Source of the DNA: Alphaproteobacteria bacterium
GTDB lineage: Bacteria > Pseudomonadota > Alphaproteobacteria > Rs-D84
DNA length: 32,000 bases
Reading direction: 5' to 3'
Assembly: GCA_017475605.1 (NCBI GenBank)
Contig: JAFVFD010000004.1
Coordinates: 90,001-122,000 of the forward strand
Shown: positions 1,445 to 22,797 of the stretch, in pieces
Layout: each line of letters opens with the position of its first letter
Position numbering within the stretch: the stretch's first letter is position 1
Notes under the pieces: generated by a model
The model's database searches: none
What the model saw: the letters and a program-made list of their open reading frames with translations, nothing else
Told to the model about the DNA's origin: nothing
Program-made: the position numbers and the translations under genes

Positions 1445-3379
1445 ATGCAGGAATTATGGAAAAATCAGCGTGAAAATCTGTTTCTTTATGTGCCGTTTAT
1501 AATGGCGGCTGGGGCTGCGCTTTATTTCACAATGGCGACCGAGCCAAATATTCCATATTGTTGGCTGGTGGCGGCGGTAACATTTGTCGCGGCAATCTTG
1601 ATTCGCATACCTGTTATTCGCGCAATACTGCTATTTATCTTTGGTTTTACATTCGCGAACACATATACAAACATTCTTGACACACCAACCATTACGCGTG
1701 ATTTACAAGATGTAAATGTTCATGGTCGCGTTGAACAAATAGATTATACGACCAATCGGGCGCGAATCTTTATTCGTGTGCCGGCACGCGAATTAAAAAT
1801 AAAGTCAGACGATGACACAATAATTCGGGTTTCTATTTCTGCGGACCAATTGCCGAATATAAACGATGAAATTACAACAAGTGCAACATTGTTCCAACCA
1901 AACACACCCGATATCTGGGGCGGTTTTGATTTTGCGCGCTGGGCATATTTTAATGGCATCGGCGCAACTGGATTCATAGACGATTTCCAAATAACGCATC
2001 ATGCGACCATTGGCACCACCAACAACATACGCGATTGGTTACATACCAGGGCTGAATCTAAACTGGTCGATGGGCTGGTATTGGGTTATAAAAACAGTTT
2101 GCCCGCCGATGAACGCAACACATGGGTTGCAGCCGGTGTTGGCCACATTTGGTCAATAAGTGGTTTTCATATGACCTTGGTTGTGGGGTGGCTGTTTGCG
2201 ATATTTTATTTTCTGTTCCGGTGTATTCCATTTATTGTGCGGCGCATACCGGCACGCAATATGGCATTTATTTTCGCATGGATTGGTGTGATGATGTACC
2301 TTGGGCTATCGGGTATGGGTGTTGCAACAACACGCGCATTTTTAATGACAACATTGTTACTTGCGGCGGCTATTATGGGCCGGTCCGCGTTTTCATTAAG
2401 AAATGTATGTATGGTGTTTTGTATAATATTTCTTGCCAATCCCTATTATATTATGACCGCCGGATTCCAATTATCATTCAGTGCTATATTTGGTCTGATT
2501 TGGTTTTGGACGATTATTAAACCGCGCGTACCACAAAACAAAATATTGCGCGCGATATATACCGCAATATTAACAGCAATTGTTGCGTCCACATTTACCG
2601 CGCCATTTGTCGCAATGCATTTTTATTCGCTGCCGCTGTACAGCATTCTGGGCAACCTGATTTTATTGCCGATATTTTCTTTTGTTATTATGCCACTTGT
2701 TATGCTTGGCACGATATGTGCCGCGGTGGGCATTCATTTTCCATTACATATCGCAGATATAATTTATAATTGGACACTTGGTATTGCGAACCAGATTTCT
2801 TTGCTGCCATTCGCAACGGTTACAACGGGTGCCGTTTCTAATACCGCGATATGCTTTTTCATTGTTGGCATGATGGCGATTGTATTTATAAAACCGGTTA
2901 AATTACACATTAATTATATAATCGGTGCGGCATTTATATTTATTGGAACAATAACCGCATACTTTGCACCGATGCCTATATTCTTTGCAACACCGGATCA
3001 CGAATTGGTCGGGACTGTTAAAAATGACGAAATTATATTTAATAAAATACGCGCATCAAACCACTATTTTATTTTTGACACATGGAAACAGATGACGGGA
3101 CACACCGTCGATACACCGCACATCCGCGCCACACACGAACGCGGATTATATATATTTGAAACCCAAAAATATAAAATCGCATATATGCAACGTTTTCTGC
3201 CATTATTGCGAAATCTGGTAAAATTGTGTAATGATGATTCTGTGGATTATATTGTTTCATATATGAATATTCGCGCGCCCGCATGCGAACACAAGATATT
3301 ACAAGGCGGCTTTACAATATATGATTCGGGAAAAATTATTTATCTGCCGGCGACGCATCGTTGGAATAATCGGCACTAA
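1445..3379 (+). CDS. comEC: ComEC/Rec2-family DNA internalisation channel protein without a recognisable metallo-beta-lactamase domain
   Basis: Polytopic membrane protein carrying the competence-domain signature AAGVGHIWSISGFHMTLV. The track start at 1409 is TTG; the first ATG is at 1445 (MQELWKNQ). The C-terminal ~130 aa shows no HxHxDH motif. Confidence 0.8.
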   Translation: MQELWKNQRENLFLYVPFIMAAGAALYFTMATEPNIPYCWLVAAVTFVAAILIRIPVIRAILLFIFGFTFANTYTNILDTPTITRDLQDVNVHGRVEQIDYTTNRARIFIRVPARELKIKSDDDTIIRVSISADQLPNINDEITTSATLFQPNTPDIWGGFDFARWAYFNGIGATGFIDDFQITHHATIGTTNNIRDWLHTRAESKLVDGLVLGYKNSLPADERNTWVAAGVGHIWSISGFHMTLVVGWLFAIFYFLFRCIPFIVRRIPARNMAFIFAWIGVMMYLGLSGMGVATTRAFLMTTLLLAAAIMGRSAFSLRNVCMVFCIIFLANPYYIMTAGFQLSFSAIFGLIWFWTIIKPRVPQNKILRAIYTAILTAIVASTFTAPFVAMHFYSLPLYSILGNLILLPIFSFVIMPLVMLGTICAAVGIHFPLHIADIIYNWTLGIANQISLLPFATVTTGAVSNTAICFFIVGMMAIVFIKPVKLHINYIIGAAFIFIGTITAYFAPMPIFFATPDHELVGTVKNDEIIFNKIRASNHYFIFDTWKQMTGHTVDTPHIRATHERGLYIFETQKYKIAYMQRFLPLLRNLVKLCNDDSVDYIVSYMNIRAPACEHKILQGGFTIYDSGKIIYLPATHRWNNRH

Positions 3380-4094
3380 CGAAATAAAGCCCCGCCGCCG
3401 GTGCGGTTGGACCCGCTGCGCTGCGATTTTTTGCACGCAATATTTCATCAATATCGTATGGTTTCCCAACACCGATTTCAACCAATGTACCAACAATATT
3501 GCGCACCATGTGATGTAAAAAAGACCGCGCCGATAATTCAAAAATAATTTCATCGCCGCGTTTTGTAATACGGCATTCATCCAGTGTTTTTATCGGGGAC
3601 TTTGCCTGACATTCAGACGCGCGAAAACTGGTAAAATCATGTTTGCCAATTAAGTGTTCCGCGGCGCGTTTCATCGCACTTACATTTAGTTTACGTGGCA
3701 CCCACCAAACGCGGTTTTTATCCAGCACCGGCATTGCCGACCGATTTAACACAATATAAATATAGTGGCGTGCCGTACAATCAAAACGCGCATTAAAATC
3801 GTTCGCTACAATTTCACAACCTATAACCGACACCGGCTTGTTTGTTAAATAAAAGTTCAACGCACGCATAACAGTGTCCGCGGGTGTGTCGCCCGGCAAA
3901 TCAAAATGCGCCGGCATCGCCACCGCATGCACCCCCGCATCCGTCCGACCACAGCCAGTAATATCAACACGCGCCCCACAGAACGAAAAAATCGCATCAG
4001 ATAAAATTGATTGTACAGACGGGCCTTGGCGGTTCTCTTGCCACCCAATAAGGTCTGTACCATCATATTCTAAAATTACTTTATATCTTGTCAT
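3336..4094 (-). CDS. truA: tRNA pseudouridine(38-40) synthase
   Basis: MTRYKVILEYDGTDLIGWQ...GCGRTDAGVHA contains the catalytic Asp motif. The track start at 4118 is TTG. The ATG at 4094 overlaps the upstream stop as ATGA. The 3' end overlaps the comEC 3' end by 44 nt (convergent). Confidence 0.9.
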   Translation of the reverse strand: MTRYKVILEYDGTDLIGWQENRQGPSVQSILSDAIFSFCGARVDITGCGRTDAGVHAVAMPAHFDLPGDTPADTVMRALNFYLTNKPVSVIGCEIVANDFNARFDCTARHYIYIVLNRSAMPVLDKNRVWWVPRKLNVSAMKRAAEHLIGKHDFTSFRASECQAKSPIKTLDECRITKRGDEIIFELSARSFLHHMVRNIVGTLVEIGVGKPYDIDEILRAKNRSAAGPTAPAAGLYFVSADYSNDASPADK

Positions 4095-4312
4095 TTTTGT
4101 TTCATACAATTTATACAACGTTCAAGGCGCAACCAACCGTTTCTGTCTGCTTCGTCCAACAAGTCTTGATATTGGGTACAACTTTGACACCGCAGACCCG
4201 CACAACCCAAACACTTACACTTGCCGTCTTGGTTATATTCTGTTATCGCAACATTACACGCATGCAGGCCACACATTGGATGATAAAAAAGATTGTTTTC
4301 AATCATGCCCAT
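4091..4312 (-). CDS. Small cysteine-rich (9 Cys / 73 aa) putative metal-binding protein, paralog of the adjacent ORF
   Basis: The ORF exactly fills the gap in the operon. Its ATG at 4312 lies 2 nt after the upstream stop, and its TGA overlaps the truA ATG (ATGA). Pattern: H-x-C-N...Y...CxCxxCxxxxCxxC...CxxC. Confidence 0.6.
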   Translation of the reverse strand: MGMIENNLFYHPMCGLHACNVAITEYNQDGKCKCLGCAGLRCQSCTQYQDLLDEADRNGWLRLERCINCMKQK

Positions 4313-4314
4313 TA

Positions 4315-4509
4315 TTACCGTCCCGAATGAAATTTACAACCCATGCATATCGCAGATTTTGTAAAACTGTTTTTGACTACTTCATTCCATACAGTACATG
4401 TATCACACCCCGTACCAAAACAATTCATACAGGGACAGTAGTTTTTGATTTTATCATAATCGGACACAACCGCATTACAATGCTTGATTCCAAATTGTGT
4501 GTTTGCCAT
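4315..4509 (-). CDS. Small cysteine-rich (8 Cys / 64 aa) putative metal-binding protein, paralog of the adjacent ORF
   Basis: The ATG at 4509 (MANTQFGIKHCNAVVSDYD...) lies 2 nt after the fmt stop (4512-4514). It contains CPCMNCFGTGCDTC, which includes a DnaJ-type CxxCxGxG knuckle, and CMGC. The Cys spacing matches the ORF at 4091-4312. Confidence 0.6.
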   Translation of the reverse strand: MANTQFGIKHCNAVVSDYDKIKNYCPCMNCFGTGCDTCTVWNEVVKNSFTKSAICMGCKFHSGR

Positions 4510-4511
4510 AT

Positions 4512-5318
4512 TTATTCCCCATATTTTATTTCCGCACCACGCAGGCCGTTTACAAAACTTTTCCAATCCATTGGTTTTTTGCCCGCCGGTTGAATTCTAA
4601 CAATTTTTAATTCACCGTTTTCAATGCGCGTTTCCAAAATCTTGACATCCATACCATTGATTTTTGTGCGTCCCGCACCAAGTGCACGAATCTGGTTATG
4701 TATCGCGGTTGCACCACGCGACCAATCAATTATTTCATCATCGCCGGTAAATTTGCGTGTAAATGTTGGTTCGCCACTTTGCGCCACCGGTTTATATTTT
4801 TCCGGCGCACTTAAATATTCAACCAACATTTTTGAACCTATTTCCGACACGCGTTTTTCAATTGTTTCATTTGTATCATTTTCACCAATTTCAAATGGTT
4901 CGCGCATATATACATCGCCCGCATCCATTTCAGCGGTGATTTGCATTAAACAGACCGCACTTTGTTTGTCGCCGTTAAATATTGCTGTTCGTATTGGCGA
5001 CGGCCCACGATATTTTGGTAAATCACTTGGGTGAATATTGATAACTGGCGCAGAATTCAAAACATTATCGCGTAAAATCACACCATAGGATACAACCACC
5101 ACCATATCGGGCGCATAGTTATATTCTTTGATACTGGTGTGTACCGGCAACCCATGTTCGTTTGCCCAGGTATGCACCGGCGATGGTGTCAAAACCTGTT
5201 TACGACCCATCGGTTTTGGTGCGCGTGTAAATACCGCGACAATTTCATGTCCCGCAACACGCACTGCATCAAAGATTGGGACTACAAAATCATTTGTTCC
5301 CATTAAAACTATTTTCAT
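4512..5318 (-). CDS. fmt: Methionyl-tRNA formyltransferase (short, 268 aa)
   Basis: MKIVLMGTNDFVVPIFDAV...VFTRAPKPMGRKQVLTPSPV...INIHPSDLPKYRGPSPI. The ATG overlaps the def stop as ATGA (5315-5318). Confidence 0.9.
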   Translation of the reverse strand: MKIVLMGTNDFVVPIFDAVRVAGHEIVAVFTRAPKPMGRKQVLTPSPVHTWANEHGLPVHTSIKEYNYAPDMVVVVSYGVILRDNVLNSAPVINIHPSDLPKYRGPSPIRTAIFNGDKQSAVCLMQITAEMDAGDVYMREPFEIGENDTNETIEKRVSEIGSKMLVEYLSAPEKYKPVAQSGEPTFTRKFTGDDEIIDWSRGATAIHNQIRALGAGRTKINGMDVKILETRIENGELKIVRIQPAGKKPMDWKSFVNGLRGAEIKYGE

Positions 5319-5824
5319 TTTTTGTGTTTCCGCACTTTTCTCATAACCATTTCACGATGCACCGGCGACAAATAGTCAATAAACAACACACCGTCCAGGT
5401 GGTCTGTTTCATGTTGCACAATTCGCGCAGGCAACCCAGACATTTTTGCCGCCATCGGTTTGCCATTTTCATCTGTCCATTCAACTTCGACCGATTCAGG
5501 TCGCGACACATCTGCAAACACCGGCAAATCGTCCGGCCCCAGCACCGACAGGCACCCTTCTTCCATGGTACAAAGTTTATCGCTTTTCTTGGTAATGACC
5601 GGGTTTATCATTTTGAAAACCTCATCTGTGTCCGGATTCATCATAACCAAGAAACGTTTTGTAATGTTCACCTGGGGCGCGGCCAAACCCACACCGTTTT
5701 GATCGCGCATCATCTGCACCATTTCGTCCAATGTGTGTAAAATGTCCGGTGTGATATTTTCCACCACATCGCACTTTTCGCGCAACACCAAATCGCCACA
5801 AAGTTTCATTTCCAAATTACTCAT
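5315..5824 (-). CDS. def: Peptide deformylase
   Basis: The three Def motifs are present: GVGLAAPQV, EGCLSV, HETDHLDG. I chose the start at MSNLEMKLCGDLVLRE (5824) by its spacing to the LR motif; it overlaps the rmuC stop by 8 nt. Upstream in-frame ATGs up to 5836 are also possible. Confidence 0.9.
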   Translation of the reverse strand: MSNLEMKLCGDLVLREKCDVVENITPDILHTLDEMVQMMRDQNGVGLAAPQVNITKRFLVMMNPDTDEVFKMINPVITKKSDKLCTMEEGCLSVLGPDDLPVFADVSRPESVEVEWTDENGKPMAAKMSGLPARIVQHETDHLDGVLFIDYLSPVHREMVMRKVRKHKK

Positions 5825-7049
5825 CATCATCACCATCGTCCGTTTCCGCGGTTATTGCCAGATTTTTTGTAACCGACAAACCACCCTGCTTTTTAATTTT
5901 TTCAAACCATGTTGATATATTGCCACGCCCGGTTGTTAATTTTTTCATACCTTCGTCGTATGTTCCACGCAACGATTCCAGCGCATTACCAATCTTTTTA
6001 TAATCTTCGGTAAAGCCTGCATATTTGTCATAAAGTTTTTCAGCATATTCGACAATTTTACCGACATTTTCGCTTTGCTTTTCAACTTTCATCAATGTAT
6101 CAATCGTGCGCAGCATCGGCAACAGCAACGACGGTGTCGCGATTGTAACACCGTTATCGTATGCGTATTTATAAATATCTTCCTGGTCGCGATTCATCAA
6201 TTCAATATATGCGTGTTCCAGCGGCATAAACATACACACATAGTCAAACTTTCTGTCCACAACCTTGTTATAATTTTTGTCGCCCAGTTCTTTGATATGC
6301 GCCTTGGTTGCATCAACAAATGCGCGCCAAAGGTGTTTCTTTTCTGTTTCATCCTCGGCTGCAAGATAGTCCATATAACTGTTAAGCGAAACCTTGGCAT
6401 CAACGACAAAATGTTTGTTGCCCGGCATATGCACGATATAGTCCGGAATGTCGCGCCCACCAGACAGGTGCTTTTGCGCCTCGTACTGAACCCCCGGTTG
6501 CCAACCCAACAATTCGAACAAACGTTCCACCTGAATTTCGCCCCAGTTGCCCTGAATCTTTTTCTTGCCACGCAGGGCATCTGTTAAATCGGCTGCCTCT
6601 TTCTTTAATGCGCCACTGGCATCGACCATGCTTTTAATCTGACCTTCTAGTTGTGCGCGATTATCAACCGATGTTTTAAGCATATCCTTGATTTGTTTAT
6701 CAAAGTCAGTTTTTAATTGTGCGATTTGCTCTTTGAATGGGTTAATTGTTCGGTTAAGGGTTTCAGTGTGTTCCTCGGTCGCACTTTTGCGTGTCTGGGC
6801 CAACAATTCCGCCGACACATTTTTAAAGTCGCGCATCATTTCACCGCGGACATTTTCCAGGGTCTGAATTTTGGCATCAGCGGCGGCGATTTTACCAATC
6901 ATTGCCGAATTATCGCGCTGTAATTTATCAATCTGCTGTTTAAGCAATTCAACCGATGCATCGCGTGGACGCATTATGTGCGCAACAACGGCACCAAAAA
7001 TGGCGCCAATAACAAAGCCTAAAATCCCAAATACAGTCGAATCCATCAT
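5817..7049 (-). CDS. rmuC: DNA recombination protein RmuC
   Basis: N-terminal TM helix, a long coiled coil, then KIQGNWGEIQVERLFE and a nuclease-like C-terminal part. The track start at 7109 is GTG and lies inside a terminator hairpin. The ATGATG at 7049 is preceded by SD GGGGGCGGG. Confidence 0.88.
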   Translation of the reverse strand: MMDSTVFGILGFVIGAIFGAVVAHIMRPRDASVELLKQQIDKLQRDNSAMIGKIAAADAKIQTLENVRGEMMRDFKNVSAELLAQTRKSATEEHTETLNRTINPFKEQIAQLKTDFDKQIKDMLKTSVDNRAQLEGQIKSMVDASGALKKEAADLTDALRGKKKIQGNWGEIQVERLFELLGWQPGVQYEAQKHLSGGRDIPDYIVHMPGNKHFVVDAKVSLNSYMDYLAAEDETEKKHLWRAFVDATKAHIKELGDKNYNKVVDRKFDYVCMFMPLEHAYIELMNRDQEDIYKYAYDNGVTIATPSLLLPMLRTIDTLMKVEKQSENVGKIVEYAEKLYDKYAGFTEDYKKIGNALESLRGTYDEGMKKLTTGRGNISTWFEKIKKQGGLSVTKNLAITAETDDGDDDE

Positions 7050-7070: not shown

Positions 7071-7098
7071 ATTATAGAATAAAAAAGCGGCTTTGCAA
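7071..7098 (-). promoter_or_regulatory. Candidate rmuC operon promoter
   Basis: Minus strand reads TTGCAA (7098-7093)-N16-TATAAT (7076-7071). The -35 hexamer sits in the loop and stem of the upstream terminator hairpin. Confidence 0.4.
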
Positions 7099-21434: not shown

Positions 21435-21851
21435 ATGATTCAGGATACTATAACCACTTTGAAAGATATTGCAAAAGAGCAAACCGTATCCGTTGAGTAT
21501 TACCAAAACGGAAAATGCTATCGTATTCCGATGGCGGCATTTTTCTTGGATATATCATATGACCCATTTGATGACGAAGACGAAGATATGTCGTTGTACA
21601 TAAATTGCGACTATATTATGGTTCTTGGTACACCATACATGCGATTTTCAGTATCAGATATTGACCACAAATTGATTATCGCACCAATAATTGTACCGTT
21701 CGACAAAAAGAAGCAAAACCGGGTTCATCGCGAAATACTATCTTTGGTAAATATTTGTTCTAAACGAATTATAGCCCAGGAAATATCCCGGAACAAATAT
21801 GCCGTAGCAAGCGCAATAAACAGCATCGTTATGAATCAGGAGTACAGTTAA
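21435..21851 (+). CDS. Hypothetical protein P1 (138 aa, acidic), paralog of P3
   Basis: Uninterrupted ORF directly behind a strong promoter. It shares an N-terminal motif (TLKDIAKEQTVSVEYY..YRIP) and a C-terminal motif (ILSLVNICSKRIIAQE) with P3. It has the acidic insert DPFDDEDEDM. I recognise no known domain. Confidence 0.6.
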   Translation: MIQDTITTLKDIAKEQTVSVEYYQNGKCYRIPMAAFFLDISYDPFDDEDEDMSLYINCDYIMVLGTPYMRFSVSDIDHKLIIAPIIVPFDKKKQNRVHREILSLVNICSKRIIAQEISRNKYAVASAINSIVMNQEYS

Positions 21852-21867
21852 AAAAAAGGAGCATAAA

Positions 21868-22275
21868 ATGCGTCAAATCGTGTATAAAAACATTTTAAAA
21901 CTTATTGAAGAAAATGAACCCATCGTGGAAGCAACTAAAACAGGAACAAAATATACCTTATATGGTCGTCGTGGCGAAGTAATTTTAAGTACATATCACA
22001 ACAATCGCAAAATTGAATTATTTATCGGTGGTAGATTATTTGCATCTGCGGCGGCTGAAAGTTTTGATGGCACCGCAACCCCACATGCCAATCAATTATA
22101 CAACATAGAACGCAAATTACGTGGCGCAACACCAAAATGGCTTAGCAAAGACATCCATGCCGCAAAAAGCAACAAGGGCGCAACACCATCGCAGACGGCA
22201 ATTTTACAAAACGCATGGTGGAAATCACGCGTAATGAAACAGGCAATGTGTAACGCATTAGGCAATCAAAAATAA
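21868..22275 (+). CDS. Hypothetical protein P2 (135 aa, basic), N-terminally related to P1/P3
   Basis: Strong SD AGGAG (21857-21861) 6 nt before the ATG. The N-terminus NILKLIEENEPIVEATKTGTKYTLY parallels P1 and P3. It has an internal GATPKW / GATPSQ duplication. I recognise no known domain. Confidence 0.6.
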   Translation: MRQIVYKNILKLIEENEPIVEATKTGTKYTLYGRRGEVILSTYHNNRKIELFIGGRLFASAAAESFDGTATPHANQLYNIERKLRGATPKWLSKDIHAAKSNKGATPSQTAILQNAWWKSRVMKQAMCNALGNQK

Positions 22276-22287
22276 TCGCGACTTGTT

Positions 22288-22797
22288 ATGAAAAAATATC
22301 TAGAAACTTATTTAAGAAAAGTTATTCGTCAAGAATATGTTTCTGTGCATCACGATTATGATTCAGCAGAAACAACGTACATCATTCCATACAATGCATC
22401 GCTGGCATCACCAAAAATAAAATTATTGTTGTTGCAAAGCGCAGGTATCATAGAAGACGATGAAACTATTGACGATTACACCACATCAGAAATAGAAGAA
22501 ACATCAAAAAATCTTATCGATATTACGACACCAGAATTCGAAATATCTACATCACACTATATAAATAATCGTGGTGTATTGATGACACATTATATATTAA
22601 ATTTTGATGGGGATATATTGTTCCAAAAATCTTATCCATCAAATAAAATAAGCACGAAAAACCAAATGTTGCGATTGATAAAATTATGTTCAAATAAAAT
22701 CATTGATCAGGAACGTGCCGCACAAAAATTCAAAATGGAAAAAATGCTTATATCAACAAATATGTTTAATCTACGTGTGACACGCGACAAAAGGTAA
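22288..22797 (+). CDS. Hypothetical protein P3 (169 aa, acidic), paralog of P1
   Basis: YLRKVIRQEYVSVHHDY..TTYIIP and MLRLIKLCSNKIIDQE match P1. It has the acidic insert IIEDDETIDDYTTSEIEETS. It is very AT-rich with many ATA/AAA/TTA codons. Its 3' end overlaps the comF 3' end by 32 nt. No SD is visible. Confidence 0.55.
   Translation: MKKYLETYLRKVIRQEYVSVHHDYDSAETTYIIPYNASLASPKIKLLLLQSAGIIEDDETIDDYTTSEIEETSKNLIDITTPEFEISTSHYINNRGVLMTHYILNFDGDILFQKSYPSNKISTKNQMLRLIKLCSNKIIDQERAAQKFKMEKMLISTNMFNLRVTRDKR

Follow-up and report, generated by a model that had tools for sequence, protein, structure and literature searches.

This study concerns a window of 32,000 nucleotides (nt), i.e., the whole stretch of DNA that was analysed (positions 90,001 to 122,000 of contig JAFVFD010000004.1 from an alphaproteobacterial genome, in the following G000), and within it two short cysteine-rich open reading frames (ORFs), ORF-A and ORF-B, which lie between the genes fmt and truA. 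We find that the fmt/truA junction is a gene-turnover slot with variable content across the genus, and that neither ORF-A nor ORF-B is a permanent component of the machinery for formylation or pseudouridylation. The best explanation as a whole, which we regard as fairly probable, is that both are real, exchangeable accessory metal-binding mini-proteins encoded in a gene-swapping slot. The genus is probably Candidatus Enterousia, whose published description fits (PMC12306168). The genomes of relatives measure 0.7-1.1 Mb, and the sequencing runs that hold the locus are, where a source is recorded, gut metagenomes, some of them labelled sheep or bovine.

The content of the slot was surveyed in the 57 genomes of the genus in which we located both fmt and truA. 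The distance between the two genes ranges from an overlap up to 735 nt, and the slot holds no gene in 12/57 genomes, one gene in 25/57, two in 14/57 and three in 6/57. The original prediction had expected nothing between fmt and truA from known genomes, which holds in this genus for the 12 empty loci, while the other 45 are occupied. The mini-genes found here (in the following also called cassettes) are of three types. Type 1 is the 8-Cys family that is present in the window with ORF-A and ORF-B. Type 2 comprises proteins of 55-78 amino acids (aa) with four invariant cysteines (C5, C8, C25, C47) followed by Phe, and type 3 (91-107 aa) extends the type-2 core by a conserved C-terminal tail. According to hhalign, types 3 and 2 are related (probability 92.8%), while types 1 and 2 are unrelated (1.9%). 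Fused two-domain forms exist as well: types 1 and 2 are joined in either order, and each of them also occurs fused to a second domain of its own type. Where an array mixes the types, a type-2 or type-3 gene stands ahead of type 1 in 7 cases and the reverse order is observed in 2.

When 101 genomes of the genus were searched with the profiles, 39 gave a match for type 1, 50 for type 2, and about 13 for type 3, and almost all of these matches are located at the fmt-truA slot. Among the empty-slot genomes covered by these searches, no family member was found elsewhere in the genome. Type 2 is found in 0/44 genomes from 21 other genera of the order. For the sister genus (5 genomes), we observe a def-fmt-truA arrangement with fmt abutting truA in G026, one 570-nt gap without Cys-rich ORFs, and truA located elsewhere in 3/5 genomes. 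Since cassettes are absent from the fmt/truA junctions of the sister genus, we consider them to be an innovation of the genus studied here.

Turnover at the junction is visible when loci are compared. In a tree built from fmt and the start of truA, the slot states are scattered across the genus. The slot of G049 is empty, with a spacer of 12 nt, and that of G065 holds a single type-2 gene (L039/L040). The flanks of these two loci are 98% identical, and what sets the loci apart is exactly the cassette that G065 carries from the TAA of fmt to the ATG of truA. For G023 vs. G053, the flanks are 92-94% identical on the nucleotide level and the fmt/truA products 94-97% on the amino-acid level; their cassettes are 43% identical and unequal in number. 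In G042 and G051 (L024/L049), the type-1 cassette is 98.3% identical on the nucleotide level and fmt 74.5% identical. Here, the identity is about 100% from ~20 nt before the fmt stop onwards and drops ~30 nt into truA. That is, in this one species pair a cassette was transferred between species with breakpoints in the flanks. Furthermore, metagenome contigs from other species match fmt up to its stop (4512) and diverge at 4511/4512 into other ORFs, which begin directly behind the TAA. Decayed type-2 copies are also found, one truncated (in G024) and one frameshifted (in G057).

Across the genus, the third-codon-position identity is 0.67 in the last full window of fmt and 0.61 in the first window of truA, compared to 0.34-0.58 inside the genes. 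This peak in the end windows is a modest signal, which is consistent with recombination anchors as well as with an embedded ribosome-binding site. Gain, loss, and exchange of cassettes between species would proceed through homologous recombination in two conserved segments, i.e., the final ~20 nt of fmt and the initial ~30 nt of truA, as is shown for the one species pair above. Natural transformation may provide the exchange route, with comEC and comF being present. Integron cassettes were considered and rejected, i.e., the junctions mostly measure -4 to +20 nt, which is too short for attC, and no integrase is found nearby.

Many cassettes (e.g., at L018, L034, L036, and L040) end with AAA ACA CGA TAA, which is close to the truA start ATG ACA CGA TAT, such that the ACA CGA TAA ending mirrors codons 2-4 of truA in frame. 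This ending could be the scar of a junction duplication or could reflect a restart-site constraint. A target-site duplication was dismissed: the 5' boundary has no matching repeat, and a terminal R is found for mini-genes elsewhere as well.

In the window, fmt, ORF-A, ORF-B, and truA are all encoded on the minus strand. The 3' end of fmt (5318-4512, 268 aa; Pfam Formyl_trans_N, E 8e-30) forms the left anchor of the slot and the 5' end of truA (4094-3336; Pfam PseudoU_synth_1, E 5e-37) the right one. The fmt stop TAA (4514-4512) is followed after 2 nt by the ATG of ORF-A at 4509 (4509-4315, 64 aa), whose own stop TAA (4317-4315) is followed again after 2 nt by the ATG of ORF-B at 4312 (4312-4091, 73 aa). 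The ORF-B stop overlaps the truA start as ATGA (4094-4091, minus strand), an overlap that is also present at loci L016, L023, L032, L033, and L048. The coordinates and junctions (2 nt, 2 nt, ATGA) given in the original prediction are thereby reproduced exactly, as is the insertion into an operon of translation genes, i.e., both ORFs are tightly coupled within rmuC-def-fmt-truA. Within type 1, ORF-A (type-1 profile E 5e-14) belongs to a fast-evolving upstream subtype and ORF-B to a better conserved truA-adjacent subtype. In G000 (817 kb, 5 contigs, 94% complete), the two are the sole copies of the family. They had been proposed to be paralogs, which is confirmed by BLASTP (E 3e-8, 25% identity over 56 residues).

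Conservation marks both ORFs as real genes, each coding for a small cytoplasmic protein. The original prediction had named the spacers of relatives as the place to look for kept reading frames and Cys codons. In 44 occupied fmt-truA spacers of relatives, same-strand Cys-rich frames fill a median of 98% of the spacer (61% for the longest antisense frame), and across 35 family members six cysteines are invariant. Compared to the respective orthologs in the nearest genome, G010, the ratio of nonsynonymous to synonymous substitutions (dN/dS) is 0.31 for ORF-A (42% identity, dN 0.60) and 0.15 for ORF-B (dN 0.28), while fmt and truA show a dN of 0.08-0.11 for the same pair of genomes. Cassettes generally have dN/dS values of 0.1-0.35 and change 3-7x faster than their flanks. 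That is, they are fast-evolving yet under purifying selection. Conspecific contigs from independent gut metagenomes, one of which has a source labelled sheep gut, cover the whole stretch without indels at ~3% divergence and with both ORFs intact. One further gut metagenome contig (run X4) matches the flanks of window positions 4285-4414, while inside 128 nt are replaced by 130 unlike letters; the replaced segment encodes the C-terminus of ORF-A and the N-terminus of ORF-B. Either the strain behind it has a mosaic A/B junction, or the contig is a chimera.

We further characterized the type-1 family. An alignment of 35 members with a mean identity of 23% has six invariant cysteines (C32, C34, C37, C45, C66, and C69 in ORF-B numbering) and the family consensus C.C..C.G..C..C. 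C14 and N27 are near-invariant, and the eighth cysteine (C42) is common with shifting position. Given 8-9 Cys in 64-73 residues, the Cys content is ~12%. With about eight cysteines each, ORF-A and ORF-B most likely form two Cys4 metal sites, binding zinc or possibly an iron-sulfur (Fe-S) cluster. The pattern of eight conserved His/Cys ligands that had been read from the pair alone is upheld in its cysteines, which are enough for two Cys4 sites, while His is not conserved. The suggested likeness to the DnaJ motif CxxCxGxG is not supported, since only one knuckle resembles the motif and no Pfam match exists at E <= 1.

A profile search of 1.84 billion representative proteins yielded 75 type-1 relatives, which are all 61-145 aa long except for P0065 (818 aa; weak partial match). 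The core Cys pattern is kept by 73/75 of these relatives and the full 8-Cys pattern by 55/75. Homologs of ORF-B in public protein collections have 62-92% identity and are all unnamed; the truA-proximal subtype, which includes ORF-B, is conserved over its full length at this level, including an acidic helix. Scanning metagenome contigs with ORF-B gave no relative, and the scan of genome contigs gave one relative and one chance match. The AF2 model of ORF-B (pLDDT 81.6) consists of an N-terminal hairpin region followed by three helices.

Neither ORF-A nor ORF-B matches a family of Pfam (E <= 1), NCBIfam, PHROG, or PADLOC. Searching the sequences of the PDB with the type-1 profile gives no usable match (best E 0.74), and the same holds for the fold searches with the ORF-B model, i.e., Foldseek vs. 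PDB (best E 9.6), BFVD (best E 2.8), and VIA-align vs. 48,161 chains (best Z 2.3). The novelty that had been claimed for the pair, and that a match to a known family would have removed, stands. By these searches, type 1 is an undescribed 8-Cys family, so far found only in this genus. Paralogs of zinc-ribbon ribosomal proteins (L31, L32, L33, L36, S14, S18) were rejected for ORF-A and ORF-B for lack of a Pfam or NCBIfam match. A precursor of a ribosomally synthesized and post-translationally modified peptide was rejected as well: the proteins have a conserved folded core, no maturase or transporter is adjacent, and the radical-SAM genes of G000 (six, of housekeeping size) are located away from the slot.

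The cassettes seem to be expressed by coupling to their neighbours. Shine-Dalgarno-like elements are located on the minus strand within the last two sense codons of fmt (GGGGAA, 4515-4520), 5 nt before the ATG of ORF-A, and within the last codons of ORF-A (GGGACGG, 4318-4324), 5 nt before the ATG of ORF-B. The 3' end of fmt reads GGNGAA-TAA at almost every locus, whichever gene comes next, and the 3' ends of cassettes typically consist of a purine-rich Arg codon and TAA. truA has no Shine-Dalgarno-like element and its restart is at the ATGA. Among the cassette proteins (75 relatives), 69% have R and 23% K as C-terminal residue, compared to 7% R and 32% K genome-wide. In part, this bias is probably due to the ribosome-binding site of the cistron that follows. 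As a separate observation, 32% of the ~590 long ORFs in G000 end in lysine, while lysine makes up 5.9% overall; this excess is a strong A-rich bias right before stops and fits a widespread abutment of cistrons.

Upstream of rmuC, there is a promoter-like site on the minus strand (7071-7098) with a 10/12 match to the consensus, which is the best in the set. Since the total of such sites does not exceed that of shuffled sequences, this is weak evidence for the site at 7098-7071. We see no convincing minus-strand terminator between it and truA, and it is likely the single promoter of rmuC-def-fmt-A-B-truA. The mini-genes would borrow their expression from this constitutive operon (rmuC-def-fmt-truA) through translational coupling: the ribosome-binding purines of each cistron would sit in the last codons of the preceding gene, and truA would restart at the ATGA. 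It is the slot that brings about the tight coupling, which is thus no evidence of co-function.

For types 2 and 3, we studied a possible relation to high-potential iron-sulfur proteins (HiPIP). The nine best fold matches of the type-2 model (pLDDT 77.9) in VIA-align 2 all have the HiPIP fold and are weak (Z 2.2-3.7). They are led by the beta subunit of benzylsuccinate synthase (4pkf_B; Z 3.7, root-mean-square deviation 2.6, 49 aligned), the small subunit of 4-hydroxyphenylacetate decarboxylase (4-HPAD, 2y8n_B; Z 3.7), and HiPIP 3h31 (Z 3.5, 28% identity), with further HiPIP matches to 1isu, 8z82, 1pih, and 1hpi. With the Pfam profile HIPIP (PF01355), one subgroup of type 2 reaches 17-21.2 bits, the match covering profile positions 25-65 of 66. 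This is below the curated Pfam cut-off of 22 bits, which is exceeded in 0/101 genomes, and 1/25 members reaches E 0.002. The four invariant cysteines are spaced 3/17/22 in type 2 and 3/18/16 in type 3, where a HiPIP was defined by C-x2-C followed by distances of ~15 and ~14 together with the HiPIP fold. We consider type 2 as HiPIP-like and not as a HiPIP member, given a signal that is consistent but weak. For type 1, i.e., ORF-A and ORF-B, these searches gave no sign of such a relation, with no Pfam match, a probability of 1.9% against type 2 in hhalign, and nothing above Z 2.3 in the fold searches.

Other leads for these types were followed and dropped. The best match of the type-2 profile among PDB sequences is L36 (E 0.12). 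The leads from the ESM Atlas are unnamed and partly viral clusters, together with DUF6472 for type 2, whose model misses the slot. A tblastn search against 50,697 phage records gave no match. A match of PF01355 in G024 contig 42 (L097:785-3181) is spurious, since it lies in an alternative frame of a large gene; that gene encodes ~800 aa and resembles an autotransporter or polymorphic membrane protein. A role as the small subunit of a glycyl-radical enzyme was rejected, PF01228 not being found in G000. The lineage is described as fermentative and free of respiratory chains (PMC12306168). As G000 has no glycyl-radical enzyme and the lineage no respiratory chain, a classical HiPIP role is unlikely.

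Several points weigh against the reading of ORF-A and ORF-B as exchangeable accessory metal-binding proteins. The absence of family members from the empty-slot genomes is based on profile searches of incomplete metagenome-assembled genomes, and there is only one clear recent transfer among the 57 loci. Both the metal (Zn or Fe-S) and the metal binding of ORF-A and ORF-B are inferred from their sequences, and the runs that hold the locus include no RNA run. No toxin, defence, or phage gene adjoins the slot, and PADLOC and PHROGs provide nothing beyond isolated weak matches (E > 0.004), with nothing from the BFVD fold search. Finally, the conservation of the truA-proximal subtype looks more like that of a stable in-house partner than like an arms race. 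Because this subtype is well conserved, a TruA partner, a redox role, and a role in metal handling are kept alive at low probability.

The original prediction had suggested that the pair may assist N-terminal Met processing, the modification of tRNA, or the ribosome. In that case, the mini-proteins would be dedicated subunits with a link to zinc or redox state that serve Def, Fmt, TruA, or the ribosome; in one version, they would be small partners of TruA, a pseudouridine synthase, in the manner of Nop10. Such a role would agree with the strict coupling of the genes within a translation-related operon, with the truA neighbour being usually of type 1 (type 2/3 first in 7 arrays vs. 2) and of the better conserved subtype, and with the related mini-genes upstream of metG, which is also a translation gene. 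We nevertheless judge it very unlikely, since 12/57 slots are empty with intact fmt and truA and without a profile match elsewhere in those of these genomes that the profile searches covered, and since unrelated families (type 1 vs. 2/3) substitute for one another. Furthermore, the content differs between flanks that are 98% identical, one cassette moved between species, fmt abuts truA in G026 of the sister genus, and neither the lengths nor the ends of fmt and truA are affected by the presence of a cassette. The co-occurrence in all genomes of the lineage that is expected for an obligate partner is not seen, given the 12/57 empty slots. At the other extreme, the ORFs might be non-functional, i.e., chance frames or decaying remnants that are carried along in the operon, for which one can point to the missing RNA run and to the truncated or frameshifted cassettes of some relatives. 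The conservation pattern contradicts this and leaves it hardly any probability: six cysteines are invariant across 35 sequences at 23% identity, dN/dS is well under 1, the frames are intact in independent strains, and sense frames occupy 98% of the spacers.

The mini-proteins could also be small Fe-S redox proteins, i.e., types 2/3 as cytoplasmic HiPIP-derived [4Fe-4S] modules and type 1 as their two-cluster partner, which, in an organism that lacks a respiratory chain, would supply Fe-S or radical-SAM enzymes with electrons. While the HiPIP folds among the nine best matches of the type-2 model, the 17-21 bits on one type-2 subgroup, the aromatic residue after the last Cys of type 2 (as in HiPIP), the fusions of type 2 and type 1, and the six radical-SAM enzymes of G000 fit this idea, all fold matches stay below Z 4 and none passes the 22-bit cut-off of Pfam. 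G000 itself has type 1 only, which shows no similarity to HiPIP or ferredoxin, and lacks a glycyl-radical enzyme that could use such subunits. A core electron carrier would moreover be neither missing from a fifth of the species nor swapped between them, such that we find the redox role quite unlikely. No better standing is given to metallothionein-like buffers, whose copy number (0-3), duplication, and fusion would track how much zinc or other metal the cells encounter in the gut. Conservation that is confined to cysteines, tandem amplification, fusion, and copy-number variation are in line with buffers, and so are horizontal exchange, which is common among metal-handling genes, and the single Cys-less L31, which fits zinc economy. 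What makes buffers improbable is a Cys content of ~12% instead of ~30%, the helical core of the AF2 model (pLDDT 82), the absence of a metallothionein match in Pfam (E <= 1) or NCBIfam, and the many non-Cys residues that are kept by the truA-proximal subtype.

Returning to exchangeable accessory proteins as the preferred explanation, the mini-proteins would be dispensable accessories, in which the metal ligands are under purifying selection and the rest changes faster. As a guess on their role, they may be metal-stabilised binding modules that act on variable partners in the interaction or conflict with cells or mobile elements. Hetero-oligomers (A with B; type 2 with type 1) are conceivable from the fusions. 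A bolder version, which we deem rather unlikely in its entirety, combines these elements: the slot would be an integrase-free plug-in site for expression, in which promoterless mini-genes are stacked head-to-tail, provide the ribosome-binding site of their respective successor, and are swapped between species by transformation and homology of the flanks. Its cargo would be a new class of cytoplasmic Cys4-cluster mini-proteins (one family derived from HiPIP, one new 8-Cys family) that are hetero-oligomeric and mediate interactions of the obligate symbiont with partner cells or mobile elements. The hetero-oligomers enter this version because type 2 + type 1 fusions are frequent.

No part of bacterial genomes is charted as poorly as the small proteins. 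Genome reduction is expected to eliminate accessory genes, yet here a genome of 0.8 Mb keeps a site at which mini-genes for cysteine-rich proteins are continually gained, lost, fused, and exchanged, probably with expression through a housekeeping operon. Should the mini-proteins prove to be modules with Fe-S or zinc that act on variable partners, the slot would offer a compact natural system for the recruitment and expression of micro-proteins, and the mini-proteins would provide a handle on the partner-dependent lifestyle of Candidatus Enterousia. For annotation, the locus is a caution that translational coupling to housekeeping genes does not imply a common function.

Some features of the surroundings are of separate interest. 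The neighbours of the slot in the window are rmuC, def, fmt, truA, and comEC, with comF also in the window; def (5836-5315, minus strand; Pfam Pep_deformylase, E 2e-43) overlaps fmt by ATGA. Fmt matches only positions 4-49 of 100 of Formyl_trans_C, the tRNA-binding C-terminal domain in Pfam. It is short (268 aa) across the genus, while the open frame of fmt in G026 of the sister genus has ~310 codons from stop to stop. The shortening is independent of slot occupancy, i.e., the lengths and ends of fmt and truA are the same with or without a cassette. A plus-strand frame of 239 aa (3874-4593) runs antisense over truA, ORF-B, ORF-A, and the end of fmt. It was rejected as a gene since it is not conserved in relatives, where the median antisense openness of the spacers is 61%. 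No Rfam match is found within 3300-5900. The sole L31 gene of the genome (31482-31679, minus strand) encodes the Cys-less form, as had been stated before. Between valS and comF, three plus-strand ORFs (138, 135, and 169 aa; 21435-22797) are found that are not Cys-rich.

Type-3-like mini-genes of 101-107 aa, with the same 4-Cys core and conserved tail, also occur outside the slot in genomes G052 and G069 (L075:889-1212, L077:375-698, L076:964-1269). In two genomes, such a gene is located directly upstream of metG and is preceded by a 70-aa ORF of unassigned family; G000 has only a gap of ~350 nt at mreB-metG. Next to metG, which is a translation gene, there may thus be another slot with variable content.

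In relation to known systems, the exchange of cassettes resembles that of the pneumococcal capsule locus (dexB-aliA), which is hypervariable and exchanged via flanking homology, and that of integrons. A fixed site, conserved flanks, variable content, and a transfer across lineages with breakpoints within the flanks are shared, and, as in integrons, promoterless cassettes would be expressed from upstream. Both differ from the slot, which takes up single mini-genes of 170-300 nt with junctions of 0-20 nt, has no integrase nearby, and would be expressed through translational coupling within a housekeeping operon.

With regard to the cargo, HiPIP and the small subunits of glycyl-radical enzymes (benzylsuccinate synthase beta, 4-hydroxyphenylacetate decarboxylase gamma) share with types 2/3 the four cysteines in the arrangement C-x2-C...C...C. 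HiPIPs carry an aromatic residue after the last Cys, which is also found in types 2/3 together with the size of 55-70 aa, and the best fold matches are HiPIP-fold proteins (Z 3.1-3.7). In contrast, the first Cys of types 2/3 lies 5-15 residues from the start, which leaves no room for a Tat/Sec signal, their scores stay under the 22-bit cut-off with weak Z, and the organism has no respiratory or photosynthetic chain (PMC12306168). The likeness is restricted to types 2/3, and ORF-A and ORF-B (type 1) are unrelated to type 2 by profile comparison. For metallothioneins such as SmtA/BmtA, the small size, the conservation of only Cys/His ligands, tandem duplication, and domain fusion are common ground, while the mini-proteins have a lower Cys density, a predicted helical core, and no Pfam match. 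The C(P)XCG zinc-finger micro-proteins of Haloferax volcanii have CxxC-type knuckles, are lineage-specific, and are missed by annotation. The mini-proteins are similar to them in size (50-90 aa), in their CxxC-type knuckles, and in their restriction to a lineage, but type 1 follows the pattern C...CxCxxC...C...CxxC without a match in sequence or fold, and the mini-genes studied here are tied to one chromosomal slot and exchanged as cassettes.

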